From IMG/VR virus record IMGVR_UViG_3300045988_079665: DNA of 64,000 bases. The stretch is one strand, 5' to 3'. Position numbers and translations under genes: made by a program. The notes under the pieces were generated by a model. The model did not search any database. It was given only the letters and a program-made list of their open reading frames with translations, and was not told the origin of the DNA. This document shows positions 781-31,788 of the stretch, piece by piece. The stretch is from a virus. Positions within the stretch are counted from its first letter, which is position 1. Each line of letters begins with the position of its first letter.

Positions 781-1319
781 AATTTCCTTTTAATTTCCTT
801 TCGATTTCTAATAAAATTTTATTAAAACAAGTCGCAATGTTCATGCGCATATTGACTTGATATATAGGGTTATTTTGTCGCACTATTAACTACTTACAGG
901 TACTCACTTCACCAAGCCCTATACTATTTGCGCGGAATAGGATTATCACCACACTATAAGCACATTTTCCAGTTTTGCTCTTCGGATGGTACTAGATGAG
1001 ATTCGACCAACAGCCAACCTTAGCAGTGACGCGCGTTATTTACTAAGGATTTTTAGAATTGCCACACTCTCTACAAATTCATGTTAAATTGAATTTACAG
1101 TTGCGCAACCATCTTAAAATCAAGAGTGTGGCGACGTTGCCTCATAGCATCAAGTGGTCAGCTATCAACTATTCAGCAACTAGCATTATAACCTATAAAC
1201 TAGACTATCCGCAGTGACCAAATCTTGAGGACTGTCTTACAAAGCTAGGATTTTCGGCTTTTCCACCAGACGGCTATCAAGTGTGCTTACAATGCTAGTA
1301 GAGGCATGATAGACGTTTT

Positions 1320-1392
1320 TGACCGTGGTAGGATTCGAACCTACATCTCATCCGCTATGAACGGAGAGTATTACCAATTAGGAGACGCGGTC
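1320..1392 (-). tRNA. tRNA-Met/Ile2-like (anticodon CAU), D-stem not base-paired
   Basis: Perfect T-arm GTAGG-TTCGAAT-CCTAC, loop TTCATAG, acceptor GACCGCG/CACGGTC (1 mismatch); A14,G18G19,A21 present but D-stem positions 10-12/23-25 (TCC/TAC) cannot pair (only 13-22 T-A does). Confidence 0.5.
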
Positions 1393-1399
1393 ATATGGA

Positions 1400-3280: not shown

Positions 3281-3373
3281 TGGTACTGGCGCTCGGACTC
3301 GAACCGAGATTTTGCGGCAATCGACCGCTAAACTGTGTATAGGACAGCTGGCTTACCATTAACCGACACCAGC
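3281..3373 (-). tRNA. 93-nt class-II (long variable arm) tRNA with anticodon loop CCUAUAC (UAU), CCA encoded
   Basis: Acceptor GCTGGTG/CGCCAGT, D-arm GGTT-AATGGTA-AGCC, T-arm CTCGG-TTCGAGT-CCGAG, 23-nt variable region with GCGG/CCGC stem. Confidence 0.6.
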
Positions 3374-4492: not shown

Positions 4493-4521
4493 ATTATACC
4501 ATATAAAATTAGATTTGTCAA
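4493..4521 (-). promoter_or_regulatory. consensus sigma-A promoter
   Basis: rc TTGACA-aatctaattttatatgg-TATAAT; -35 contains TGA stop of 4518..4943. Confidence 0.75.
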
Positions 4522-4943
4522 GCATCTTTGATAAATTTATTTTCAATAGCAACCCACTTTTTAATCTGGTCATCTACTCGCACCCATTTGCCATAACAAT
4601 TCAGGTCTGGGTCAAAATACCAGAGTCCATAATAGTTTAGATGCGCCTCGTTGGTAATATTGCTGAATGGATTATCATAACCAATCCAACCAAACAAACC
4701 CGTAACAAACTTTACATCAGAATCATTACCTACTGTAAATACCGCCAAATCGCCTAGTTCATCATGAACAGCCTGCACATTAAATTTGATTTCTGTCCCA
4801 TCTTCTCTATAAAATCCAAGACAACTTCCTTCGCGCTTCTTTACATCTTCATACTGACACACATACTCATGGCAATGCGCCTCATACTCATCATCAAATT
4901 CTGCGCCGCAATATTCACATTTATAAATCGTTGTTTCAATCAT
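4518..4943 (-). CDS. hypothetical protein with C2H2-like motif (141 aa)
   Basis: ORF track; YKCEYCGAEFDDEYEAHCHEYVC. Confidence 0.75.
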   Translation of the reverse strand: MIETTIYKCEYCGAEFDDEYEAHCHEYVCQYEDVKKREGSCLGFYREDGTEIKFNVQAVHDELGDLAVFTVGNDSDVKFVTGLFGWIGYDNPFSNITNEAHLNYYGLWYFDPDLNCYGKWVRVDDQIKKWVAIENKFIKDA

Positions 4944-5515
4944 TTGAACAATTCCTCCATTTCTCTAGTATTGTATTTTCTATTCTTCACATATTCAACT
5001 CGACTTTTGAATTTGCCCCAATCTGCACTACGGATATTATCGTCAATCAATTCACGAATAAAAATCTCATCCTTATATTTGCGCCGTTCGAGCCGTAAAT
5101 CATGTAGCAACTTATATATCTTATATCCATCTCTTGCATTGTATGAATTGAACTCAATAGCATGAAGCACATCTTGAATTTTATTCTCTACTTCTTGCAG
5201 TTTATATTCGACCCATGTCGCCCTTGCTACAAGCTGGTCATGCAGGTCACAGAACGCGCCAATTTGCGCCAATGCTAAATCATAATTGACCAAATTTGAA
5301 TTGTTAAACTGGTCGAAATCGACGGGTTTAGATGGTGCATCAATCTGTTGCACAAAATATCCAAGATTGCGCATTTGCTTTGGTAAATTAACAAGCGCAT
5401 TATCGGCTTTGGTTTTATCATTGAATTGAAATGACTCGCTTAATTCAGTTGTTGGAATCCATTGCCCTATGGCATTATGCATGAGATAGTATTTATTGTT
5501 ATAGAGTACATACAT
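4940..5515 (-). CDS. hypothetical early protein (191 aa)
   Basis: ORF track; 4-nt overlap with downstream gene. Confidence 0.8.
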   Translation of the reverse strand: MYVLYNNKYYLMHNAIGQWIPTTELSESFQFNDKTKADNALVNLPKQMRNLGYFVQQIDAPSKPVDFDQFNNSNLVNYDLALAQIGAFCDLHDQLVARATWVEYKLQEVENKIQDVLHAIEFNSYNARDGYKIYKLLHDLRLERRKYKDEIFIRELIDDNIRSADWGKFKSRVEYVKNRKYNTREMEELFK

Positions 5516-8193: not shown

Positions 8194-8426
8194 TAGCCCG
8201 TACATACATAGATATTTATATACATATCTATCTGCACATACATTTACATATTCATATGCAGATTCATCTGCATCATCATGCATATAAATGATGTAGATAG
8301 ATGTATTTATAGATAATACGTGGCTTTGTGTCTATAAATATAAACGCCACATTTACTTTCATGCACATATCGGCAAACATATTAGCACCAAAGTCAATGT
8401 CATTCACATTTTTCATATGAATATAT

Positions 8427-8438
8427 GTGAATATTCAC
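8427..8438. repeat. 12-bp perfect palindrome GTGAATATTCAC
   Basis: Read directly. Confidence 0.8.
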
Positions 8439-8719
8439 ACATTTTCCCAACAAGTTTATGTATTGATTTGCCGCTTTTTCTATTTAGACATATAGATATA
8501 TACTATTATCATCAGTCTATTACATGCACACATTATTTTGTATAGATATAATGCTTGATTGTCAACTATGGCAGAATCGCCGCAATTAGCTGTATTGCAC
8601 CATCTGCGTCTCACTATGCCAATTTCAACGCAATCTCATATACATACTAGACTCGGCGCAAAAGTCCGTTGTACGTCATCAGAGCCGCACCGCCACGATT
8701 ATATGTAGGCATATATTAC

Positions 8720-8906
8720 TGGGGAAAATCTGCATAGCTTAAGCCGCACACACACATGAGAAAAATCTAGTCGATTTTTTCGCGCCGAGCCAGTGTATGT
8801 ACTGTATATAGTTGGGGAAAATGTAAAAAATTGTAAGGTCACATATACGCGAGGATTTTTTGCATCGATTTATTGCTTCATTTGAATAAAGTGTATCTGG
8901 GAAAAT
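8720..8906 (+). repeat. three direct copies of T(G)GGGAAAAT (8720-8729, 8813-8822, 8898-8906)
   Basis: Read directly; inverted copies at 8441-8449 and 13106-13115. Confidence 0.6.
8837..8877 (+). repeat. left copy of imperfect ~45-bp direct repeat
   Basis: GGTCACATATACGCGAGGATTTTTTGCATCGATTT vs 12781-12827 GGTAACACGTACGCGAGTATCTAATTTTTTGCAATCGATTT. Confidence 0.5.
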
Positions 8907-20286: not shown

Positions 20287-22875
20287 GTGCCATTAACAGA
20301 GTTCTGTTATATACCTTCTGTGGCAACGGATGCTTTTTATACGCCAGAGGAACAAGTAATACATAATCGACTTGTCAAGCTATATGCCTTGAGAATGCGC
20401 GAGAAGAATGGTCAGAATCGAAAATGGCGTGTTTCATCAATTAACCGTGTTATCAAGAAGCATAAAGATGAACTTGTTGAGTTGCTGAGAAAATCGCTTG
20501 AAGACAACATTACAAGAGAACTTAATCCAGATGCGGTAACAGATAAGACAATTATTAACCTGTTTTGTTCTGAGTTGACTCGTAGCCTTGGCATTAAGAC
20601 ATTTGAGCGAAGTGACAAAATTATTATTGTCAATGTTTTCTTTTTCGAGGTATTAAACAGCATCATTCATAATGGATTCAATTACAATGGGGAGCATTAT
20701 ATTTTCTATTCATGTGGCGCTGGCATGATACGTACAAAGCGATTTATGGCTGTTCGTGAAAAAGATTATTTGGCGGTTGAACAAACCCTCATGTGTGGAC
20801 TGACCATTGAATCAATCAATGCGCTGGGTGGCATGAATGAAAATAAACTATTGAGCTATAAGAGCCTTATGGCATCTGCAACAGATAGAATTACAGACTT
20901 TGACATAGACCGTTGCATTATAGTTGATGATTTCGAAATGCCAGTTATGGCTGAATCAGATTTCATTGATTATACGGATTATAGCATTACGCGTAAAACA
21001 TCAGAGACAATTATAGCTGAAACTGACGGTTGGGGAATGTGTTGCAAGCCCGGATTTAAGACACAGATTGTTCGTGCGCCTTGGATAAAAGGACTAGTGT
21101 CATACTTTGATTTTAGGGCATGGTTAAAGGAATATTGTCCTGCCGACGATTGGACTGTAACTGATATATACGGAAGAGAATGGAATATTATTGTGGATGA
21201 CATTCAGTATATATTAACTAAATCAATGTTTAAGTTGTATAAATTTTATCCATCTTGGCTTTGCTACAAGACTAATTTTAAGAGTTATGGTTGTTATTTT
21301 GGATGCTGTAAAGTTGAGGAAGATTATATACCAAAGGCGCGAATCAATTATCAGATGCTTCAATCTCTAAGTGATATGACGGATAATGAGATTGAGCGGC
21401 TTATTGCCAAGACAGCAGATGAAATTAATAGTGTCGGGAGAGATTATCAAACTACCATGAGACTATTAGGCGCGACTGAATACAATCAAACAAAATCAGC
21501 CATGCAAGAAGCGTTGACAATATATCCAGAATTATTTAAAGATGCGTATAACCGGGAGTTGTTGAAACAGACAAAGAAAAGTTTGGTAAAACAAGCAAAA
21601 GGTGGCAGATTGAGAATTAACGGCAAATACCTGTTTATTTCGCCTGACCCTGTGGCATTTTGTGAGTGGTTGTTCAAAGGTGAGCAATTCCCAACTGGTA
21701 TACTTGAGAATGGAGAGGTTTATACTAATCAATTCAAAGATGGTGACGAGCTTGATTGTTTGAGAAGCCCACACTTGTATCAGGAACACGCGGTTAGAAT
21801 CAACAAGCGAAATGGGCTGACCGATAAATGGCTTGGCGGAACAAAATGCATATATTTCAGTGCACACGATATGATTAGTCGTATATTACAACAGGACTTT
21901 GATGGGGATATTTCCTTGGTTGTGAAGGATAAGACGTTGACAACTGTGGCAAAGCGCAATATGCAAGGAATTGTACCGTTATCGTATGACCTCAAAAAAG
22001 CACGTGGCGGTATTATTGATGCGGATAGACTGTATGAAGGTGTAAGTACTGCATATACAGGTGGGTCGATTGGCCCGATTAGTAATGCAATCAGTAAGGT
22101 AAAAAATGCTAATGGTGGTAAAATGACTGAGGAGCAAATTAGAGTAATTGCTTGGCTTACAATGAAGAACAATCAAATTATTGATTTTGCGAAAACGTTA
22201 TGGAAAAGTGAGCCACCAAAAGAAATTGCAGATATTATAAAAAAATATACAAAGTCAAAATTGCCTCATTTTTTTATCTATGCCAAAGACAAAGACCCAG
22301 ATACTCAAGTTGAGTTGCCAAATAATTCCACGATGAATCGTATATCAGCCAAAATCCCTACTTCTCGAATTCGATATAATAACAAGATTGGGAAATTCGA
22401 TTGGACGATGTTGATAAATAAATCAGTCGATTATACTACTAGAGAAAATTCACCAATCATTGAGCGGTATAATTGGTGGATGTGGAATCAGCGCCGATTT
22501 GATTATGGCGATGACCCGCATATCAATGAGGACGATTTATATAAATATCGTCGCATAGCACAAGATATTGTGGAATATAGCAACGAGCCACTAGATGTTG
22601 TGGCAAATAGCCTAGTTGCTTATCTATATACAGTTAAAAAATCAAGCAATAAGAAAATGCTGTGGGCTTGTTTCGGTTGGACGATTGTAGAGAATTTGAG
22701 AACCAATACGGCGCAACTTAATCCAATCTGTCCCATTTGCGGCAAGCGCTTCAAGCCGCGAGATGTATGTCAGCATTATTGCTCAGAGGAATGTTATAAG
22801 AAAGCAGATAATCAGAGGCGTACTGAATCGCGCGAAGCCCCACCTGTCCGCACGGGGGACATGTTAAAACAGTAG
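20287..22875 (+). CDS. YonO-like single-subunit two-barrel RNA polymerase (RdRP-like), 862 aa
   Basis: RSPHL (R493) then QQDFDGD (D537-D541, nt 21895-21909), the DxDGD Mg-binding signature; C-terminal CPICG...C..C zinc ribbon; HU-like genes adjacent. Confidence 0.6.
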   Translation: MPLTEFCYIPSVATDAFYTPEEQVIHNRLVKLYALRMREKNGQNRKWRVSSINRVIKKHKDELVELLRKSLEDNITRELNPDAVTDKTIINLFCSELTRSLGIKTFERSDKIIIVNVFFFEVLNSIIHNGFNYNGEHYIFYSCGAGMIRTKRFMAVREKDYLAVEQTLMCGLTIESINALGGMNENKLLSYKSLMASATDRITDFDIDRCIIVDDFEMPVMAESDFIDYTDYSITRKTSETIIAETDGWGMCCKPGFKTQIVRAPWIKGLVSYFDFRAWLKEYCPADDWTVTDIYGREWNIIVDDIQYILTKSMFKLYKFYPSWLCYKTNFKSYGCYFGCCKVEEDYIPKARINYQMLQSLSDMTDNEIERLIAKTADEINSVGRDYQTTMRLLGATEYNQTKSAMQEALTIYPELFKDAYNRELLKQTKKSLVKQAKGGRLRINGKYLFISPDPVAFCEWLFKGEQFPTGILENGEVYTNQFKDGDELDCLRSPHLYQEHAVRINKRNGLTDKWLGGTKCIYFSAHDMISRILQQDFDGDISLVVKDKTLTTVAKRNMQGIVPLSYDLKKARGGIIDADRLYEGVSTAYTGGSIGPISNAISKVKNANGGKMTEEQIRVIAWLTMKNNQIIDFAKTLWKSEPPKEIADIIKKYTKSKLPHFFIYAKDKDPDTQVELPNNSTMNRISAKIPTSRIRYNNKIGKFDWTMLINKSVDYTTRENSPIIERYNWWMWNQRRFDYGDDPHINEDDLYKYRRIAQDIVEYSNEPLDVVANSLVAYLYTVKKSSNKKMLWACFGWTIVENLRTNTAQLNPICPICGKRFKPRDVCQHYCSEECYKKADNQRRTESREAPPVRTGDMLKQ

Positions 22876-22963
22876 GAAATATATGGATAAAATTAACTCA
22901 CCACAATATGTTGTGGTAGACTAATAGGGAGACATATCTTTGAAATGAAGGGTGGTGAATGTG

Positions 22964-24055
22964 ATGGCATACATGGCTTATAAATTTAGGATGTATCCCA
23001 ATACTGAACAGGAAAATCTTATAATAAAGACATTTGGTTGTGTTCGGTTTATTTATAATAAGATGCTTGAAGATAAAATAAAGTTTTATGAATGTACAAA
23101 GAAAAGATTAAATAATACTCCCGCACAATATAAAAAAGAATATCTTTGGTTAAGAGAAGTTGACGCTTTTGCTTTGTGCAACGCACAAATTCATTTGCAA
23201 GCAGCATATAATAATTTTTTTAAGAATCCAAAGAGCGGGTTTCCTAAATTTAAGAGTAAGAAAACGGGCAAGAATAGTTATACAACAAATAACCATTCGG
23301 AAAATATAAGGATTGTAGATAAAACTATTAAACTTCCGAAACTTGGAATGGTTAAAATAAAGCAACACAGAGAAATCAAGCAAAATCAAAAAATTAAGTC
23401 TGTTACCATCACAAGAAAACCATCTGGGAAATACTTTGTATCAATTTTAGTTGAATATAATATTGTTGAAAAGTCGGTAAAATTAAATAAGGAAAAATCG
23501 ATTGGACTTGATTATTCAAGTCATAGCTTTTACGTCGATAGCCAATGTGTAGAAGCAGATTATCCACGATTTTATCGAGCGTCTCAAGATCATTTGTCCA
23601 AAGAGCAAAGGAAGTTGGCTACAATGAAGAAAGGTAGCAACAATTATTATAAGCAAAAAGTAAAAATTGCTACTATTCAAGAAAAAATAGCAAACCAAAG
23701 AAAAGATTGGATGCACAAATTAAGTACAGAATTATCAAATAAGTACGATTATATTTGCGTTGAAGATATAAATTTACAACAAATGTCACAGCATTTAAAT
23801 CTTGGGAAATCTACATATGACAATGGATTTGGTATGTTTAGAGATATGCTTTTTTATAAATTAAAGCAAAGAGGGAAAAAGTTCATCAAGATTGATAAAT
23901 GGTATCCATCTAGTAAAATGTGTAGATATTGTGGCACGATAAATTCTAATTTAACTCTAAGCCAAAGAGTATGGACATGTGAATGTGGAAAAGTGCTTAA
24001 TAGGGATGAAAATGCAGCGATTAACATATTGAACGCTGGATTAAGTATGATATAA
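22964..24055 (+). CDS. tnpB: TnpB (OrfB) RNA-guided nuclease family protein
   Basis: AYKFRMYPN N-terminus; RuvC D (IGLDYS), E (CVEDINLQ), D (NRDENAAINI); zinc finger CRYCG...CECG. Confidence 0.85.
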   Translation: MAYMAYKFRMYPNTEQENLIIKTFGCVRFIYNKMLEDKIKFYECTKKRLNNTPAQYKKEYLWLREVDAFALCNAQIHLQAAYNNFFKNPKSGFPKFKSKKTGKNSYTTNNHSENIRIVDKTIKLPKLGMVKIKQHREIKQNQKIKSVTITRKPSGKYFVSILVEYNIVEKSVKLNKEKSIGLDYSSHSFYVDSQCVEADYPRFYRASQDHLSKEQRKLATMKKGSNNYYKQKVKIATIQEKIANQRKDWMHKLSTELSNKYDYICVEDINLQQMSQHLNLGKSTYDNGFGMFRDMLFYKLKQRGKKFIKIDKWYPSSKMCRYCGTINSNLTLSQRVWTCECGKVLNRDENAAINILNAGLSMI

Positions 24056-24150
24056 ATAAAAAATAACCGTAGGGGCTACGGAGTTAGCTTGTTGATACTT
24101 ATGCTTTAAGCATATTGAGCAAGAAATTTGTTGAAACACAAATAGCCCAC
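23930..24150 (+). ncRNA. presumed omega RNA (reRNA) of TnpB; boundaries not determined
   Basis: By analogy: overlaps the tnpB 3' end and the hairpin-rich right end. Confidence 0.35.
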
Positions 24151-24169
24151 TAGGGAAAGGACGATATAA

Positions 24170-24589
24170 TTGCATAAAAATAAATATCCTCGGCTAGGCA
24201 AAGCCGATATGAGCAAAGAGCTACGACGGCGCACAGGCGTTGATTCTAAAATCATTGAGCTAGTGTTAAGAAACTATCATGACATTATTCGTGAGACACT
24301 ACAACATGGCGTGGAATATTCTTTGCCAGATATTGGTGTTATTACATTCCGCGACCACCCACCAAAGCCAGCTGGCGAATATTGGAACGGATTCCAAAAG
24401 CGGCGTATGTACTATCCTGACAGAATGGGATATTATCGACTAGAGTTTAAGGCTGAGAAACATATGGCTAGTTATGTAAAAGCTGGTACATTGTATGGTA
24501 AAGGCCCGACAAAAGAAGAATGGGATGCTTGGGTATTAGAGAATTATCCTAATAATCCTAAGTTTGCTAAGGAAGAAGAAGATGGCTGA
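24170..24589 (+). CDS. divergent HU/IHF-fold DNA-binding protein (139 aa)
   Basis: MSKELRRRTGVDSKIIELVL...LPDIGVITFRDHPPKPAG...RLEFKA follows HU topology. Confidence 0.55.
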   Translation: MHKNKYPRLGKADMSKELRRRTGVDSKIIELVLRNYHDIIRETLQHGVEYSLPDIGVITFRDHPPKPAGEYWNGFQKRRMYYPDRMGYYRLEFKAEKHMASYVKAGTLYGKGPTKEEWDAWVLENYPNNPKFAKEEEDG

Positions 24590-25145
24590 ATATAATAAGC
24601 TGAATCAAGAATTTTATGCTTATGCTGGTGGATTGCTCAATGTATCGCCACAGACTGCCAAGAAATATTGGATGGGGTTTGTTGATACTATCATCCATAT
24701 TCTTCATTTTGATGGCAAATGCCAAATGCCAAGTGTAGGCACATTTACACTAGAAGAATTGCCTGAGCGTAGAGTAATGGCTAAGAATGAGCAGGGTGAA
24801 CTTGTTGAGCAAATTAACCCTGCTTGGTTTAAGATATTATACAAATATAATGAGGATTTTCTTAATAACGTAAATGGACGCGGCGTTACAAAGAAATATC
24901 GTAGGCGTGTTCGTGAACGTAAGTTGACACCAAATGATCTCAAGCTGATAACTCAAGCTGAAATGGAACGAACGGCAAAGCGAACATTAGAGCAAATGCA
25001 AAATGAGCGCATTGAGAAAGCAAAGCAACAGAGCTATGATGATTTTATCAATGTCATCAATCAGAAAAAAGAAGATTATGAACGGAAAAAGAAGGAAAAG
25101 GAACAGAAATTGAATGAATCTAATGAAGATACGACAAGCGACTGA
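24582..25145 (+). CDS. divergent HU/IHF-fold DNA-binding protein with Lys/Glu-rich tail
   Basis: ...MPSVGTFTLEELPERRVMAKNEQGELVEQINPAWFKILYKYN...; ATG 24582 overlaps the upstream stop. Confidence 0.55.
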   Translation: MAEYNKLNQEFYAYAGGLLNVSPQTAKKYWMGFVDTIIHILHFDGKCQMPSVGTFTLEELPERRVMAKNEQGELVEQINPAWFKILYKYNEDFLNNVNGRGVTKKYRRRVRERKLTPNDLKLITQAEMERTAKRTLEQMQNERIEKAKQQSYDDFINVINQKKEDYERKKKEKEQKLNESNEDTTSD

Positions 25146-26298
25146 GCTGCTAGATAGCAAATTGATTGACTTGCAAGAATGGACGGCTCGTTGTCTTGGT
25201 GAGGATTATAGGGGCGTCTGGTCAGAGGAATATTTACGTCGATGTGCTGTGTTTGTTCGCAATATGCTAAATGGCGCAGACGATTGTGAGTCAGACGAAA
25301 AAGACGCTGAGATTTTAGCCCAGCTTAAAGAAGCAAAAATTGAGTTAGAGAAAGAACGCAAGAAATTACAGAGCGAGAATATTCAGTATGTTCAAAATCA
25401 GAGACTTGACGCAAGAGCAGACTTGATTCAAGAAAAGATTGCTGAGTCGATTAAGAACCTTGAGCCGTTTACTATTCGTGAGTTTAACATTCTGCCGCAA
25501 ATGAATGTAAGTGGACTTCTTTGTATTTCTGACCTTCATGCTGGCTCGACCTATGAAATCAAGGGTGCATATAATGAAATTGTAAACAAGTACAATTTTG
25601 ATATTATGAGGGCGCGGCTTGATGGGTTGCTTAACAAGATGTGTAATGATGACAACTGCATCTGGATTGATGATATTACGGTTGCTGTGCTCGGTGACTG
25701 CGTAGAGAATATTTTACGTACATCTAGTTTAACTAAGCTAAGAGAGCCAGTTATTGATACGGTTATCAAGTTGTCTGAATATCTGGCTGATTGGTTTGTT
25801 GAGTTACATGACCGGCTTGAAATTCCTGTTAATGTGGTGATGGTTGGTGGTAACCATGATGTATGCCGCCCGTTGACATCTAAGCCACAGTTTGAGGAAG
25901 AAAATCTAGGTAAAATCATTGTATGGTATCTACAAGAGCGGTTAAAGTCAGTAGATGGAATTACAGTTGATGATTACACAGATTGTGCTATTAAATACAT
26001 TAAGAACAATGCAATCATGCTTCATCATGGGGATGGCGGCGATGTAACTGAGACAATGCGATATTTTGAAAATTTATATAATATTGACATTGATGAATGC
26101 TACGTTGGGCATCTACACCGACAAGAAATGAAGAATGCTGGTATTACTGAGTTAGGTGATAAACTGTGTTGGCGCGTTGGCTCGGTATGCGGTGTTGATG
26201 GATTTGCCAAGTCTATTCGTAAAGCATCAAGACCATCTTGTATGTTTACTACATATTCAGAAGATGGTGCAGAATGGCGTAAAACATTTTATCTTTAA
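25114..26298 (+). CDS. calcineurin-like metallophosphoesterase (SbcD/Mre11-like) with coiled-coil N-terminus
   Basis: ISDLHAGS, GDCVEN, GGNHD, HHGDGG, GHLH motifs in order. Confidence 0.75.
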   Translation: MNLMKIRQATELLDSKLIDLQEWTARCLGEDYRGVWSEEYLRRCAVFVRNMLNGADDCESDEKDAEILAQLKEAKIELEKERKKLQSENIQYVQNQRLDARADLIQEKIAESIKNLEPFTIREFNILPQMNVSGLLCISDLHAGSTYEIKGAYNEIVNKYNFDIMRARLDGLLNKMCNDDNCIWIDDITVAVLGDCVENILRTSSLTKLREPVIDTVIKLSEYLADWFVELHDRLEIPVNVVMVGGNHDVCRPLTSKPQFEEENLGKIIVWYLQERLKSVDGITVDDYTDCAIKYIKNNAIMLHHGDGGDVTETMRYFENLYNIDIDECYVGHLHRQEMKNAGITELGDKLCWRVGSVCGVDGFAKSIRKASRPSCMFTTYSEDGAEWRKTFYL

Positions 26299-26300
26299 TA

Positions 26301-26329
26301 TTGACAATCAATAGATTATGTGATATAAT
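26301..26329 (+). promoter_or_regulatory. consensus sigma-A promoter
   Basis: TTGACA-atcaatagattatgtga-TATAAT. Confidence 0.8.
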
Positions 26330-26335
26330 ACAACT

Positions 26336-27266
26336 ATGGAATTGCGGCTAATATCTGCGGAGTTAGCCTTGGCTTGGGGATGCGTCCTACAAGTCTCATA
26401 ATAGAGGAAAAGTCTGAACTCTTTTCGCCGTCACAAGACGGAATTTAGAACAATCGGTAGCGTCAGTTGCAAATGGCGCTACCAACTTAAATTGATTCAT
26501 TCTCTGCTAGGTGATAGCTATTTTAGCTGTGTTAATCATGCTTGTGGGGCGATTGACCCACCTAGTAGAGTTGGATATCTTCGCCGTGAATCTGCAATTC
26601 AGCAGAGCCTGATACGAGCGTGTCATATACTGTGGCGAGATATGACAATTTATCTCGTGTACCATGCGTACATGGAGTTTTCAGGGTCGTTTATGGCGGC
26701 TCTTGCAAAATCCTATCCTTGACGATAGGCGTATAGCAACAGGTGTGTTATACGAGCGTATGAAGCATAGAACCGGGTTGTCTTTCGGCAATATGTGGAC
26801 GTTAATCGAAGGTTTGCGGTATACCATATGGCAACAATGAAAACCGCATCGCCATTAGAACGATGCAAAGGCGAGATGTGATGGCATCTAATACCCATTG
26901 CACCATAATACCGAGCGACACGGTAAATATGTCGCACTTGTAAAATGATAAAACATAACAATGAGTGGCGCTCGATACCGGCATGCGCTTGATAAATACC
27001 GGACATTGATGAGTCCCTAGGCAAGGACAATAAACTACCTGTCGCTACTACTCATTGGCGGCTATGAATATCCGAAAGGAGGTCACTATTCTCTTGAATT
27101 ATCCACTGGTTTATCCGAAGCATAATTAAAGAAAGGATGGTGGTCAGAGCCAATCGGCTCATATCTACAATAAGCCCAACTCAATGGGAACTGTTGTTTA
27201 ACTGAATATTGAACCTTGACAAATACAAAGCAGCTGAGAGCAATCTTGGCTGCTTTGTCATATTTA
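26336..27266 (+). ncRNA. ~0.93 kb promoter-driven ORF-free structured RNA (candidate large ncRNA or late-operon leader)
   Basis: No credible ORF or RBS; >=10 local helices plus long-range AATGAGT/ACTCATT; higher GC; terminal hairpin. Confidence 0.5.
27226..27266 (+). terminator. hairpin CAAAGCAGC/GCTGCTTTG with T-rich tail
   Basis: 9-bp stem, 14-nt loop, then TCATATTTAT. Confidence 0.5.
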
Positions 27267-27300
27267 TAGGAAAGTAAACGGAACAGAAAGGAATGAGAAT

Positions 27301-28125
27301 ATGTTTTGCCCATATTGCGGCAAGGAAAAGCAAGACAGCCAATTCTATAAAAGCCCAATCAAAACGGGCGAATATATTAAGCCATGCAAATCATGCGTAA
27401 CTGAGATATATAAACAAGCTCTTGAATCTACTAAAGACCAAGGCGCGGCATTATGGTCAACTTGTATGCAGACTGGCATTCCCATGAGACGTGCTGAATA
27501 TACGGCTTGTCTTGATACGCTAGAAAAGGCGGCTAAAGGTAAAAAGCCTAGTCTATTTATGTTGTATCATACATACTTATCAACATCTCCTGATAAATTA
27601 ACAGGCGTATGGGATAGCGATATGGAGTTGTCTAATTTCAAGGATTTGGGCGATGTAGCTAAGGGTGAAACAGATGAAGTTGCGCTTAAAGCAAGATGGC
27701 GCAAACAATGGGGCGGTGACTATGAAGATGAGGACTGTCAATGGCTAGATGATATGTTCGATAGCTATACGGCAGATATATTTGAAATGGATACCGCTAT
27801 GGAAATGCGTTATCGTGATCTGTGTAAGCTAGAACTTGAACAGTATAAAAATGGTGTTAATAAAGACACTCAAGCACAGATCAAAACGTTAATGTCACTA
27901 CTTAAACTTGATGATTTTAAGAGTAATCAGAAGTCGGACGCGGAACGAGCATTTGAGAAACGTATAGCTTGGGTGGAATATACTAAACCATCTGAATGTG
28001 AAGATTTGACAAGATTCGTAGATATGGTTGGATATGAAAAGGACAAGGGTGAAAAGATGCGTAGCTTGCGCAACGCTGTTGCTGGCACTAGAGATTATCC
28101 AGCAATCCCGAAGGAGGAAGCATAA
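27301..28125 (+). CDS. putative terminase small subunit (position-based), N-terminal zinc ribbon
   Basis: Immediately upstream of and overlapping terL; CPYCG...C..C. Confidence 0.35.
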   Translation: MFCPYCGKEKQDSQFYKSPIKTGEYIKPCKSCVTEIYKQALESTKDQGAALWSTCMQTGIPMRRAEYTACLDTLEKAAKGKKPSLFMLYHTYLSTSPDKLTGVWDSDMELSNFKDLGDVAKGETDEVALKARWRKQWGGDYEDEDCQWLDDMFDSYTADIFEMDTAMEMRYRDLCKLELEQYKNGVNKDTQAQIKTLMSLLKLDDFKSNQKSDAERAFEKRIAWVEYTKPSECEDLTRFVDMVGYEKDKGEKMRSLRNAVAGTRDYPAIPKEEA

Positions 28126-29969
28126 TGCGCTCTAGGATGGGCGGTCTTAGAGAATCATTTAAGGCTGATAAACTTCGCGCCGTATCTGGCATATCTAAAA
28201 AAATAGATAGTGCCTTAGAAGATAACATCATAGAGTGGACAACTCTATTCAGACGAAATTGGGATATATTTGCTGAATTTTATCTAGGGATTCCATTAAA
28301 ACCATATCAGCGTCAGGCATTACATGAAATTGGTGTATCAGATGTGTACTTTTGGAGAGCAGGACGTGGCGGCGCAAAATCGTTTATTACTATGCTTGCG
28401 GCGGTCTGCAAGCTACTATTGTATCCAAACTGTCAGATAGTTATTACATCCTCTACTGTTGACCAAGCTAATAAGATGGTCAAAGAAAAGCTAGAGAAAG
28501 AATTGATAAAAAAGTTATCTCAACTACTTTTGCTTTATTATGAAAAAGACTGGATAAAAATAACAAAGCCGAACGATGGATATTATGTAGAGTGTACACT
28601 TAACAATTCGTCCATTACTGTTCTTGCCCCTGTTGAATCAGCTAGAGGTTCGCGTTCTAACTTTACCATATATGATGAGGTTGCCATTATGAAGAAAACG
28701 GCAATAGACCAAATCTTTGATGGGATGTTGTTTCCAAGGCAACCAAATTATTTAAGCAATCCTGCATATTCTGGAAACAAGAGATGGATAGAAGAATCTA
28801 AGAGTATATATCTAACATCATCTAAGTTCAAGTTCCAGTGGTGGTATAGATTGTGGTGCGATTGTGTAACAGGATATTATGTTGATAAGCGTACTAAATA
28901 TGGCATATTCGCAACTGACTTTTTTGATAATATAGAAAATGGCTTAAAAACATGGGGTGATTATCGTAGAGCTAAAAGGCAGAACGACGATATATCATTT
29001 AGGACAGAATACTTAAATGAAGCGATTGGCGAGTCAGAGGATTCTTTCTTTAGTCTTGAATCATTTAAGGAAAATCAAGTTATTACAGATGCGTTTTGCC
29101 CACCAAAACCGATGGATTTATTGGTTGCTAGTGAATTAGAAGATGACGAGAAAAAAGACGATGAAGTGCGCCTCATTGTATCTGACTTTGCTTGGACAAC
29201 AACTGGCAAAAAAGCAAACGAATCGGATAATAGCATTGCTATATGTATAAGAGCAAAGTGGAAAAAAGACCATTTTGATAAATATGTAGAATATATTGAA
29301 CTGCTACCAACGGCAGATGACGCAGATGGTTGTGCTGATAGGTTAAAAGAATTGTTTTGGTTGTATCAAGCAGACTATTTAGTGCCTGATGCTAGATCGG
29401 GTGGCGAAGCGGTTATGATAGCTTTATCTAAACCATATACCAATGAACGTTATTCGGCGTTCATCAATAATCATGGCCTAACTATGGCTGATAAAAAAGA
29501 ATATCATGTGGCTCGACCCGATAAGCTAGATTACTATAGAGCCAATGCAGTAGACCCAAATGCTTATCCTTGTATCATACCTATTGTTGGTAGTGAAACG
29601 CTCAATACGTCTTATTGGAAAGCAACTAAAATGTCACTTGAGAATAATCGTATAAAATTCTTGATAGGGATGAGCGATAAGCAAGATGTTATTGTTGAAA
29701 CTGGCGAATATTACAAATACACCGGCGAACAGATAGCAGATATACTTGCGCCTCATGGCAATACTGATTTGCTTATATCGGAGGCAGTTAATTTAACCAC
29801 CATATTCAAAGGCGAAAACATTAAACTGGAAGCGCCGAGAACAGGGCATCGTGACCGTATTGTTACATTAGCTATGGGTATTTTAATATGTGATTATATT
29901 GAAAATGAATGGAATAGACAGAATCATGCTGAAGAATATGATTTAGATGACATTCAATTAGTATATTGA
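28125..29969 (+). CDS. terL: terminase large subunit
   Basis: Walker A-like GRGGAKS, Walker B IYDEVA, C-terminal nuclease-like acidic motifs. Confidence 0.85.
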   Translation: MRSRMGGLRESFKADKLRAVSGISKKIDSALEDNIIEWTTLFRRNWDIFAEFYLGIPLKPYQRQALHEIGVSDVYFWRAGRGGAKSFITMLAAVCKLLLYPNCQIVITSSTVDQANKMVKEKLEKELIKKLSQLLLLYYEKDWIKITKPNDGYYVECTLNNSSITVLAPVESARGSRSNFTIYDEVAIMKKTAIDQIFDGMLFPRQPNYLSNPAYSGNKRWIEESKSIYLTSSKFKFQWWYRLWCDCVTGYYVDKRTKYGIFATDFFDNIENGLKTWGDYRRAKRQNDDISFRTEYLNEAIGESEDSFFSLESFKENQVITDAFCPPKPMDLLVASELEDDEKKDDEVRLIVSDFAWTTTGKKANESDNSIAICIRAKWKKDHFDKYVEYIELLPTADDADGCADRLKELFWLYQADYLVPDARSGGEAVMIALSKPYTNERYSAFINNHGLTMADKKEYHVARPDKLDYYRANAVDPNAYPCIIPIVGSETLNTSYWKATKMSLENNRIKFLIGMSDKQDVIVETGEYYKYTGEQIADILAPHGNTDLLISEAVNLTTIFKGENIKLEAPRTGHRDRIVTLAMGILICDYIENEWNRQNHAEEYDLDDIQLVY

Positions 29970-30213
29970 TATTTGCCTATGAAGCGGCTACTATGTTGGT
30001 GTGTGGCTGTGGAGGTGCTATTAGGGTTGTGTGGTGAATATACTCCAAGTTCCAACTTAGGCTTAATTGAAAGCTGAAAATAAAAACACTCAAAAATATC
30101 AAACGAGCGGATAGGGAGGACAAGTAGCTCAATGAACTTTGGCATACGTTAATGAAGTCCATAATCTAACCGCTCTAATATATAAACAATAAAACAAAGA
30201 AAGGAGGTTGAAG

Positions 30214-31788
30214 ATGCCAAAAAATAATGAAGATGTAAAGCTATCTAAAAATGACCTTCAAGACATTATTGATTTTAGTGCTGGCTTGATGGCGGTTGAT
30301 AATTTTTATTCACCATTTTTGAGCAATCAGCTATTGACCAATCTAAACAATAATCCACGCTTACCTAATGCAGAGGCGGTAAAAAAGGCGCTCAATGACT
30401 ACAAGAATAGTGGCGCTGATTTACAGGGGTTTGTAGAATTTGCATCAGCGTTTGATATGATTTTCAAGCGTACTTTATATTCTTATGCAAATGTGCTATC
30501 TTTCGACCTTCAGATAACCTGCAAAAACGCATATACAAAAGGCGACTATGAATCAGAGGAATATAAGAAAGACCGGCAAACAGTAGATAATTTCTTGACT
30601 AATTTTGACTACAAGAAAGAATTTTATAATGTTCTGCTAAACGTCCTAAAGCGTGACTCATATTTTACTTGGTTCAGAAAGACTAAGAGCGGCAATCGCG
30701 GCAAGATGAAGTATGCTCTACAAATTATGCCACAAGATTATTGTATGCTTACTGGATACTTTGAAAAAGGGTTGCTGTGGTCTTTTAATGTACTGTATTT
30801 TATGCAACCGGGCGTAGATATTGAGGGGTTTGACCCAAGTCTTAAAAAGACATATCTTGATGCGATTGAAAATGCGGAGCTAAATTATAAGCCGTCTGCA
30901 CCACTCGATAAACGTAATGGTAGTTATGCACTATGGGCAGATGTATCACCGCTTAATGGTGCTTATGCTTGGAAATTTTCCACAGACAACTTTGCTAACA
31001 ATCCATTCTTAGCACCATATGTAGCCAATGTTCTACGCAGTGATGAGGTTGGTGAGTTGCAATATAACAAAGACCTTATCTCTGCGGCTGGTATTTTAGC
31101 TGGTGAAATTAGACTATTTGATTCAGCCAAGTCAGGCACGAAGGCGAATCAATTTGCTATTGACCCGAAAACGCTTGGAGCATTTATGCAAAAGGCGGCT
31201 AATGGACTCAAGAATATTGCTAAACTGGCCGCTATGCCACTTGAGAATATCAAGTTTTTCCAATTTGAGGACAAGAACCCAAATAGCTATACAAATGAAC
31301 TAACTACAACAGCTGGTATTGGTACTGGTATTAGCCGTGTTATCTATTCATCTGATAAGATGAGCAATGCTGAGCTAGAGGCGGCGCTTAATGAGGTATA
31401 TCAGACTATGAAGCCAATGTATGCTCAGTTCAATAATTTCCTTGATTTCTATGTCAATCAAATGACTAGCAAATATAAGTTTAAGTTTGAGTTTGTTGGC
31501 TCTAACTATCAATTTGAGCGTGATGCCAGATTTGATAAGATGATGAAAATGGCTGATAAGGGACTTGTGCTCAATTCGTCCGCATGGGCTAGTGCTATTG
31601 GCATGAATCCTATTACATTCGATAGGATGCTTGCTGAGAGCAAATATACTGGATGGATTGACAAGTATTCAACGCTTATGTTAAATGCAAATACCACAGC
31701 GCAATCAAATGAAGGTGGCCGCCCCCGTCAGTCAGGAACATCACTTACTGAAAGCGGAGAGGCAAGCCGAGAAACATTAGAGGAATGA
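30214..31788 (+). CDS. portal protein (position- and size-based)
   Basis: 524 aa directly after terL; AAAGGAGGT RBS. Confidence 0.6.
   Translation: MPKNNEDVKLSKNDLQDIIDFSAGLMAVDNFYSPFLSNQLLTNLNNNPRLPNAEAVKKALNDYKNSGADLQGFVEFASAFDMIFKRTLYSYANVLSFDLQITCKNAYTKGDYESEEYKKDRQTVDNFLTNFDYKKEFYNVLLNVLKRDSYFTWFRKTKSGNRGKMKYALQIMPQDYCMLTGYFEKGLLWSFNVLYFMQPGVDIEGFDPSLKKTYLDAIENAELNYKPSAPLDKRNGSYALWADVSPLNGAYAWKFSTDNFANNPFLAPYVANVLRSDEVGELQYNKDLISAAGILAGEIRLFDSAKSGTKANQFAIDPKTLGAFMQKAANGLKNIAKLAAMPLENIKFFQFEDKNPNSYTNELTTTAGIGTGISRVIYSSDKMSNAELEAALNEVYQTMKPMYAQFNNFLDFYVNQMTSKYKFKFEFVGSNYQFERDARFDKMMKMADKGLVLNSSAWASAIGMNPITFDRMLAESKYTGWIDKYSTLMLNANTTAQSNEGGRPRQSGTSLTESGEASRETLEE

Follow-up and report, generated by a model that had tools for sequence, protein, structure and literature searches.

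The window analysed here is a 64,000-nt stretch of viral DNA (IMG/VR record IMGVR_UViG_3300045988_079665), and the element under study is the gap at 26299-27300, which lies between a metallophosphoesterase/exonuclease gene (25114-26298) and a YonG-family gene for a putative small terminase (27301-28125, + strand; homologues carry Pfam YonG_N; PHROG 3314). The YonG-family gene overlaps the start of terL (28125-29969, +; TerL_ATPase), and a gene for a YonO-type single-subunit RNA polymerase of 862 amino acids lies further upstream (20287-22875, +). An earlier note on this DNA had described the gap as a promoter-driven, highly structured non-coding RNA of about 0.93 kb ahead of the packaging genes. 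The promoter was borne out: a predicted sigma-70/sigma-A-type promoter (26301-26329, +) begins 3 nt past the stop codon of the phosphoesterase gene, with TTGACA at 26301-26306, a 17-nt spacer and an extended -10 element (TGATATAAT; TG-n-TATAAT, ending at 26329). It scores 12/12 against the consensus, is the sole perfect match across 24000-30500 (6.5 kb), and has a predicted transcription start near 26336. At the other end of the gap there is an intrinsic-terminator-like hairpin with a U-rich tail (27225-27266, +; hairpin 27225-27258), which has 15 pairs including G-U pairs, six of them G-C, a 4-nt loop and the tail CATATTTATA, and which was the only + strand terminator found inside the gap in a terminator scan. 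The earlier note had placed the hairpin 35 nt ahead of the first packaging gene; the distance from its end to the ATG at 27301 is in fact 42 nt, and no promoter was found in these 42 nt.

Related loci (L numbers below) were collected using the protein encoded at 27301 as query, which returned 25 IMG/VR loci with 44-99% identity, and a profile search added nine more distant loci. One extra locus, found via a DNA pattern, is a contig of 98 kb from a Hadza gut sample that was binned with an uncultured Eubacteriales genome; it is probably the same phage as the window. The three open reading frames (ORFs) in the gap, at 26492-26722 (+), 26713-27030 (-) and 27086-27358 (-), match no PHROG family. 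Stops, frame-breaking indels or large deletions interrupt ORF76 and ORF105 in every relative that covers them fully, and ORF90 is open in six relatives that are near-identical there and broken in the other 17, in agreement with the view that the gap holds no credible ORF. The G+C content is 0.44-0.46 within the gap versus 0.36-0.39 in the immediate flanks; the higher G+C content that had been noted by eye therefore holds for these flanks, and two upstream coding windows reach 0.42-0.43. The 927-nt RNA has a predicted folding energy of -305 kcal/mol versus -256 ± 6 kcal/mol for 20 dinucleotide shuffles (z = -8.2), a difference of about 50 kcal/mol, and compensatory changes maintain several of its helices across relatives. 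The gap is non-coding and is constrained at the level of RNA structure, as the description of a strongly structured region had proposed. A blastn search of the gap against 50,697 phage records gave no match.

Comparison with the relatives showed that the gap is a chain of small exchangeable, self-folding RNA domains and not one giant RNA. The same gap ranges from 258 to 1506 nt among the 34 related phage loci, with whole blocks present or absent relative to the window between well-conserved flanks, and modules are gained and lost singly as well as duplicated and reordered. Some relatives carry modules that are not present in the window. Three loci (L001, L008 and L011) retain only the 3′ module F, and the shortest gaps (258-331 nt) consist of just the 134-nt core of this module and the terminator, between flanks near-identical to those of the window. 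No conserved helix linking one module to another was seen.

All modules are on the + strand. Module A (26299-26495) contains the promoter followed by local hairpins (26336-26495, including 26346-26368, 26428-26441 and 26456-26483). Both promoter hexamers are invariant in 13/13 relatives that have this module, which is missing in about half of the loci (L001, L005, L006, L008, L010-L012, L014, L020-L022 and the distant clade). In its CCGTC/GACGG helix a C-G pair is replaced by U-A, a compensatory change; GGTAGCG/CGCTACC does not vary. Module B (26496-26578) has a long closing stem with inner hairpins, then GTTGGATAT; it is found in both clades, and directly follows the upstream stop codon where module A is absent. 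Its closing stem changes from CTCTGCTAGG/CCTAGTAGAG in the window to TTTGCCCTTG/CAAGGGCAAG in the distant clade, and to CCGC/GCGG in a minimal version. RNAalifold on modules A and B gave 78 pairs with few breaks and little variation. Module C (26579-26646), comprising the two hairpins CTGC/GCAG and TGTCATAT/ATATGACA, is missing in most relatives and has the compensatory variants CCAC/GTGG and TGACGT/ACGTCA. Module D1 (26647-26720) consists of a TGTAC/GTACA hairpin, a purine stretch and a terminator-like hairpin, and module D2 (26721-26851) of small hairpins (26712-26729 and 26730-26754) and then a drum-like RNA (26755-26851). Module E1 (26847-26948) has variable hairpins and a conserved end, CTAA(T/G)ACCCATTGCACCAT; it is swapped for other cassettes in relatives, and its distant-clade version differs and has crossing helices. 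Module E2 (26949-27066) is a three-way junction with a long-range helix (26960-26970/27043-27056), and the constant 3′ part, F plus terminator, extends over 27067-27300. All 11 helices that had been listed for the region were found at the coordinates given. Besides the module A helices, CGTATA/TATACG and AATGAGT/ACTCATT show compensatory or G-U-compatible changes, and CCTATC/GATAGG is invariant. Two did not hold up in relatives. CGAGATA/TATCTCG (26636/26651) straddles a module junction and is not conserved, and CCATG/CATGG has its middle pair disrupted in 14 of 16 relatives, which form TGTAC/GTACA in its place.

The 11-bp long-range helix of E2 is 95.7% paired, versus 29-69% when its partners are slid, and four of its pairs have changes on both sides. 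The same four segments can instead form two local hairpins, a fold that excludes the long-range one, is favoured by RNAalifold and covaries between clades; because both mutually exclusive folds covary, E2 may be bistable. The module is optional, and two diverged copies are present in L021. Two further observations concern the module boundaries. The motif (T/C)TG(A/G)ATAT occurs at 26571 (after B), 27064 (before the F-core, described below) and 27204 (after the F-core), with the first and third copies conserved in both clades, and could be a processing or junction signal. In L013, an HNH homing-endonuclease gene is inserted in the gap (4495-5290), accompanied by a second copy of the consensus promoter, which drives the HNH gene, and by one of the final ~47 nt of the gene upstream. 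In L095 and L096 the same gap is occupied by GIY-YIG or HNH genes.

The most constant part of the gap is the F-core (27066-27199, +), a 134-nt structured RNA that lies shortly before the terminator. All relatives whose gap is filled with RNA retain it, even where protein identity is as low as 44%, and it has no family match in Rfam 15. In the distant clade alone (12 sequences), a six-helix model was 95.3% paired, with 12 double-sided pair changes versus 3.4 ± 1.3 in shuffles, a signal that for helix 1 is partly due to one shifted row. A covariance model built from the distant clade only matched the window at 27066-27199 over its full length (28.7 bits, E = 5.7e-4); this was the single match in the 64-kb window, and the model gives one match per genome, always in the same place. 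With both clades combined in an alignment that is fitted to the model, and in which helix P2 is inconsistently aligned in the window clade, 92.1% of cells are paired versus 41-54% when slid, and 19 pairs are changed on both sides. The two 3′ helices, P5a and P5b, are 100% paired, with 8 of 10 pairs changed on both sides. MAFFT alone misaligned the clades in the middle of the F-core, which leaves the P2 and P4 statistics soft in the window clade, and reliance is placed on P1, P5a, P5b and the model-based alignment. The F-core was also found upstream of the YonG-family gene in L094 (69.6 bits) and L097 (29.2 bits). It was not found in SPbeta, in Enterocloster phage PMBT24, or in loci where a homing endonuclease fills the gap. 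A frame of 11-12 codons with a Shine-Dalgarno (SD)-like sequence is open in the F-core of all clades, and was rejected as coding because its variable codons change in a compensatory manner as a hairpin; a second SD-like purine run has no consistent frame, and both runs are read as helix strands rather than ribosome sites.

All relatives have a terminator, and its sequence differs among them. Relative to the window hairpin, A-U to G-C compensatory changes are seen at 27227/27256, 27232/27251 and 27233/27250, and unrelated U-tailed hairpins occupy the same place in L005, L024 and the distant clade. In L001 (5925-5958, corresponding to window 27225-27258), the outer stem is unchanged and the inner 14-16 nt, loop included, stand as their reverse complement, which looks like a template-switch inversion mediated by the hairpin. 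A riboswitch-type pairing between the core and the terminator was considered unlikely, as the core is constant where terminators vary in sequence, are exchanged or, in L001, are inverted in part, and modules can intervene.

Rfam covariance models were run on 26200-27400 at E ≤ 10 and on the whole window at E ≤ 1, and also at gathering thresholds. Neither GOLLD nor ROOL was matched at E ≤ 10 in 26200-27400 or at E ≤ 1 in the whole window, and no large-RNA family, riboswitch or ribozyme was found in the gap at gathering or permissive thresholds. The drum family (RF02958) matched the gap at 26755-26851 with 37.6 bits, below the gathering threshold of 43 (local E = 3.4e-5; E = 0.0018 for the whole window). 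This match spans the full model (1-112) and keeps the UGAAG hairpin, GGA and GGUU, but is without the inner hairpin of the 3′ domain. Its 3′ stem covaries (GCGGT/ACCGC, CAGCGC/GCGCTG, CAGCAT/ATGCTG), and in L005, L013 and L024 the orthologous module passes the threshold, with 43.3, 44.8 and 44.9 bits. The drum motif was described with a Rho-independent terminator directly 3′ (Weinberg et al. 2017, PMC5737381). No such terminator was found on the + strand directly 3′ of the drum-like motif of the window, where module E1 comes next; the window copy is embedded in a longer transcript, in contrast to a free-standing small RNA with its own terminator. A further drum RNA of this operon, at 29974-30094 (+) between terL and the portal gene, is above threshold (45.0 bits), and eight relatives have drum at the same position with 48-58 bits. 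It is followed at 30105-30175 (+) by a second structured element (GAGCGG ... GGGAGGACAAGTAGCTC ... CCGCTC). This element has no Rfam match and was seen again in L013, ahead of the inserted HNH gene, and in L078, where the gap begins. DUF3800-VIII (RF03075), which has no covariance-model match in the window, is above threshold (47.8-54.3 bits) in the same gap of L013, L014, L016, L019 and L021. To our knowledge, drum, DUF3800-VIII and skipping-rope RNAs have had no known function since 2017.

The wider gene context was compared with that of Bacillus phage SPbeta. The 862-amino acid ORF is 40% identical to SPbeta YonO over 96-99% of its length (E = 5e-169), and the gene order in the window is that of the SPbeta late cluster: yonO, HU/yonN, a yonJ-like exonuclease, yonG, terL/yonF and portal/yonE. 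Homologues of the genes flanking the gap carry the precomputed Pfam labels YonJ_CC and YonG_N. A YonG-family protein scan of reference genomes found nothing. Between the polymerase and HU-like genes of the window there is a TnpB/IS605 OrfB gene (22952-24055, +; HTH_OrfB_IS605, OrfB_IS605 and a Cas12f1-like TNB domain). Because these two genes are just ~70 nt apart in the relative L112, the TnpB gene looks like a recent insertion. The hosts of relatives are Enterocloster, Thomasclavelia, Clostridium botulinum and Bacillus.

YonO, the late-gene polymerase of SPbeta, is a processive enzyme of a single subunit. It is without most accessory domains found in multi-subunit polymerases, in which hairpin-dependent termination depends on the flap domain (Forrest et al. 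2017, PMC5467207). The leader of the SPbeta late operon is the "unannotated non-coding RNA" of the same study (PMC5467207). In the SPbeta genome (L099) a 1.68-kb stretch free of coding sequences (CDS) separates yonN from yonK, and the primer-extension primers of PMC5467207 place the transcription start at L099 10550-10360, 1.2-1.4 kb upstream of yonK. This leader contains DUF3800-VIII above threshold (47.5 bits) and a skipping-rope-like element at 29.6 bits (threshold 36.7), the latter directly after the yonN stop on the late strand (L099 10720-10829). It also shares module D1: the D1 copies of the relatives are 80-85% identical over 61 nt to the SPbeta leader (L099 9600-9540), and window D1 (26651-26713) is 84% identical to those of the relatives. 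Every full D1 copy in IMG/VR lies within a YonO gene cluster, and D1 has no Rfam family match. D1 was rejected as a YonO promoter, the SPbeta start being 0.8-1.0 kb upstream of it, and no motif shared between the Spbeta-like leaders and the window (a candidate YonO promoter) was found in the leader alignment. The Spbeta-like leaders are themselves chains of conserved structured blocks. One of these, a three-way-junction block of ~110 nt (GGATAATAGTCATTTAT ... ATAAATGGCTATTATC; L099 10480-10370, late strand), is highly conserved across these leaders and lies near the mapped YonO start. Phages phi3T and BUCT082 carry DUF3800-VIII at the SPbeta position, and in Clostridium botulinum phage D-1873 a 1.2-kb gap without CDS, downstream of the YonO gene, contains drum (47.7 bits). 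A literature search for newer work on YonO found none.

With moderate confidence, the gap of the window is read as a version of the structured non-coding late-operon leader of SPbeta-type YonO phages. Both are CDS-free stretches of ~1-1.7 kb that lie between yonO and the terminase genes on the late-gene strand, and both are chains of conserved structured blocks. D1 is common to the two, and DUF3800-VIII is shared between SPbeta and the relatives of the window only. The two leaders differ in that the window has a sigma-A-type promoter of its own. A leader of this kind is already known but uncharacterised, and the F-core and D1 are conserved elements new to Rfam.

As a mechanism, it is proposed that host RNA polymerase would start near 26336 and stop at the hairpin at 27225-27266, giving a discrete RNA of ~0.93 kb. 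Host transcription that begins at this promoter, or that arrives from genes upstream, would be stopped by the terminator before it reaches the packaging and late genes. The phage enzyme would read through into terS, terL and the genes beyond, since a processive YonO-type polymerase without most accessory domains would be expected to pass such a hairpin; this would explain why every relative keeps a terminator, of varying sequence, before essential late genes. With a polymerase of its own, the phage would not need a factor like lambda Q. The constant parts (B, the F-core and the terminator) may act in cis on the transcript, and the exchangeable cassettes (drum-like here; DUF3800-VIII in relatives and SPbeta) may be orphan copies of RNAs that have DUF3800 nucleases as partners elsewhere, and may act in trans on such proteins.

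Copies of DUF3800-VIII also occur outside the phage leaders. A strict pattern for its core found 25 sites in IMG/VR, of which 22 are in YonO clusters (yonN-yonK or yonJ-yonG), a count biased by the derivation of the pattern from those same two groups. Two of the other three sites are in L115, which is also a viral contig of the same series of gut samples, and in L120. At both, 20-90 nt separate the RNA, which has promoter-like and terminator-like signals of its own, from a DUF3800 gene (Pfam E = 2e-10 and 8e-12). The gene is convergent with the RNA in L115 (3882-4763) and in tandem with it in L120 (1385-2373), and both match the PADLOC candidate defence component PDC-M04A (E ~1e-22). The RNA bodies are nearly the same as those in phage leaders, with 56/57 identical nucleotides between L115 and a gut-phage leader copy and 56/58 between L120 and a Spbeta-like leader copy, and the flanks are unrelated. 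The same RNA is thus found beside DUF3800 genes and in YonO-phage leaders, but the leader copies have no DUF3800 gene nearby. Homologues of the L115 and L120 DUF3800 proteins were found neither in the window or the other fetched loci (130 loci, 1.29 Mb in all) nor, by tblastn, in the Spbetavirus, Enterocloster and Thomasclavelia phage genomes of the collection, a search that used one subfamily as query and a window that is part of a genome. As no such homologue accompanies the leader copies, the phage DUF3800-VIII copies appear to be orphan partner RNAs, for which a function as decoy or antidote would be attractive. A scan for a DUF3800-linked copy of the drum-like module of the window returned the same phage clade only.

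It is possible, although doubtful, that the leader cassettes (drum, DUF3800-VIII, skipping-rope-like and perhaps others) are captured partner RNAs of DUF3800 (RNase H-fold) proteins and form an anti-defence array that titrates or misdirects host or prophage nucleases. A phage-encoded RNA antitoxin mimic, pseudo-ToxI, defeats ToxIN, and it is likewise an orphan phage copy of the RNA part of a two-part host protein-RNA system. The parallel differs in that DUF3800 systems, which may be toxin-antitoxin or defence systems, are listed in PADLOC as a candidate only. If this were true, the orphan DUF3800-associated RNA classes of 2017 would gain a function, loci with DUF3800 and an RNA would constitute a family of protein-RNA immunity systems, and the shuffling of modules between strains would be explained as an arms race.

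Several points weigh against the SPbeta-type leader reading and the mechanism attached to it. The SPbeta leader lies between yonN and yonK versus yonJ and yonG here, and SPbeta is without the F-core. The promoter, the terminator and the read-through are predictions from sequence, the passage of YonO through intrinsic terminators is deduced from its domain content and processivity, and the U-tract of the window terminator is weak (CAUAUUUAU). The absence of the promoter module from about half of the relatives means that a discrete host transcript is not a universal function of the leader. The drum-like module of the window is below the Rfam threshold and the window has no DUF3800-VIII, and the limits of the DUF3800 search given above bear on the orphan status of the RNAs.

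The other explanations for the gap take up different parts of this evidence. The earlier note had listed a giant ornate RNA of the GOLLD/ROOL class, or a new class, among its hypotheses. On this reading the modules would be peripheral domains of a single large RNA with one integrated tertiary fold. Like GOLLD and ROOL, the gap is phage-borne, several hundred nucleotides long (~0.93 kb) and richly structured, and its variable 5′ part and conserved 3′ core resemble the layout of GOLLD. This explanation is nevertheless very unlikely, as no covariance-model match to these families was obtained, relatives manage with no more than the core and a terminator, insertion, deletion, duplication and reordering affect single modules, no conserved helix between modules was seen, and two module types are free-standing Rfam families found alone elsewhere. 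In another explanation the exchangeable modules are functionless leftovers of mobile elements (homing-endonuclease cassettes and DUF3800 elements) in a tolerant intergenic hot spot. The HNH and GIY-YIG genes in the same gap (L013, L095 and L096), the transfer of module bodies as units between unrelated flanks, and the nearby TnpB gene (22952-24055) are in keeping with this. Leftovers without function would not be expected to keep their helices paired by compensatory changes within the phage clade, to lie always on the late-gene strand, or to remain 80-85% identical, as D1 has, between phages with polymerases just 40% identical, and we consider this explanation improbable.

A function is also assigned to the gap by two explanations that place it at the entry to the late genes. 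In one, related to the lambda-6S-like leader of the earlier note, the gap is a 6S-like or put-like leader transcribed by host polymerase from 26301, in which the F-core would act as an antiterminator, either as RNA only, as in HK022 put, or bound by a protein. The predicted arrangement does resemble lambda PR′-tR′, in that a constitutive-looking promoter and a terminated non-coding transcript stand right before the late genes, with no promoter between the hairpin and the ATG. The F-core and terminator occur together in every relative with an RNA-filled gap, and a constant F-core with a variable terminator fits a processive mechanism better than alternative pairing. The lambda 6S RNA is 194 nt, versus ~930 nt here. 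Of the hypotheses in the earlier note, a terminated leader ahead of the late operon comes nearest to the evidence, with promoter and terminator as predictions from sequence. The antitermination part does not fare as well: the promoter is dispensable in about half of the relatives, the SPbeta clade has no F-core, no Q- or N-like gene was noticed among the Pfam matches of the window ORFs (no dedicated search was made), and the phage encodes a YonO-type polymerase, the late-gene enzyme of SPbeta, which offers another route into the late genes. Antitermination is for these reasons considered unlikely. In the other explanation the gap acts as DNA, as a pac or cos site or as binding sites for a late-gene activator. 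Its position directly upstream of the terminase genes and the recurrence of short motifs such as TGAATAT would fit, and a packaging element had been among the earlier suggestions. Compensatory changes that preserve pairing, strand-specific through G-U pairs, point to RNA over DNA, and no related contig ends inside the gap. By analogy, packaging sites are expected elsewhere: the opening point of SPbeta is between yonR and yonP, upstream of yonO (preprint 10.1101/2021.11.22.469490), the terminal repeat of phage Perkons precedes its polymerase gene by ~1.6 kb, and this is also where the records of the Enterocloster and Thomasclavelia phages begin. These analogies are indirect evidence, and they agree with one another. 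A DNA-level element is accordingly highly improbable.

Read as an SPbeta-type leader, the gap is more interesting in its YonO context than as an isolated giant RNA. The comparison places drum, DUF3800-VIII and skipping-rope on the late-gene strand downstream of a YonO-type gene in three lineages, namely gut Eubacteriales phages, Spbetaviruses and a Clostridium botulinum phage. The near-identity of the phage copies of DUF3800-VIII and those linked to DUF3800 genes makes a role of the RNA testable in Bacillus subtilis, with SPbeta and phi3T. The layout also raises the issue of what happens when a minimal two-barrel RNA polymerase meets terminators and structured leaders. More generally, a long structured intergenic region in a phage can be an array of small RNA cassettes and not one giant RNA.

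Outside the gap, a tRNA-Met was predicted at window 1319-1393, and a tRNA-Ile (anticodon TAT) at window 3281-3373 (-), which at 93 nt is unusually long. In Enterocloster phage CB457P2 (L105), a group I intron (8417-8747, 95.9 bits) with an adjacent intron-type endonuclease gene was found in the terminase-gene region.

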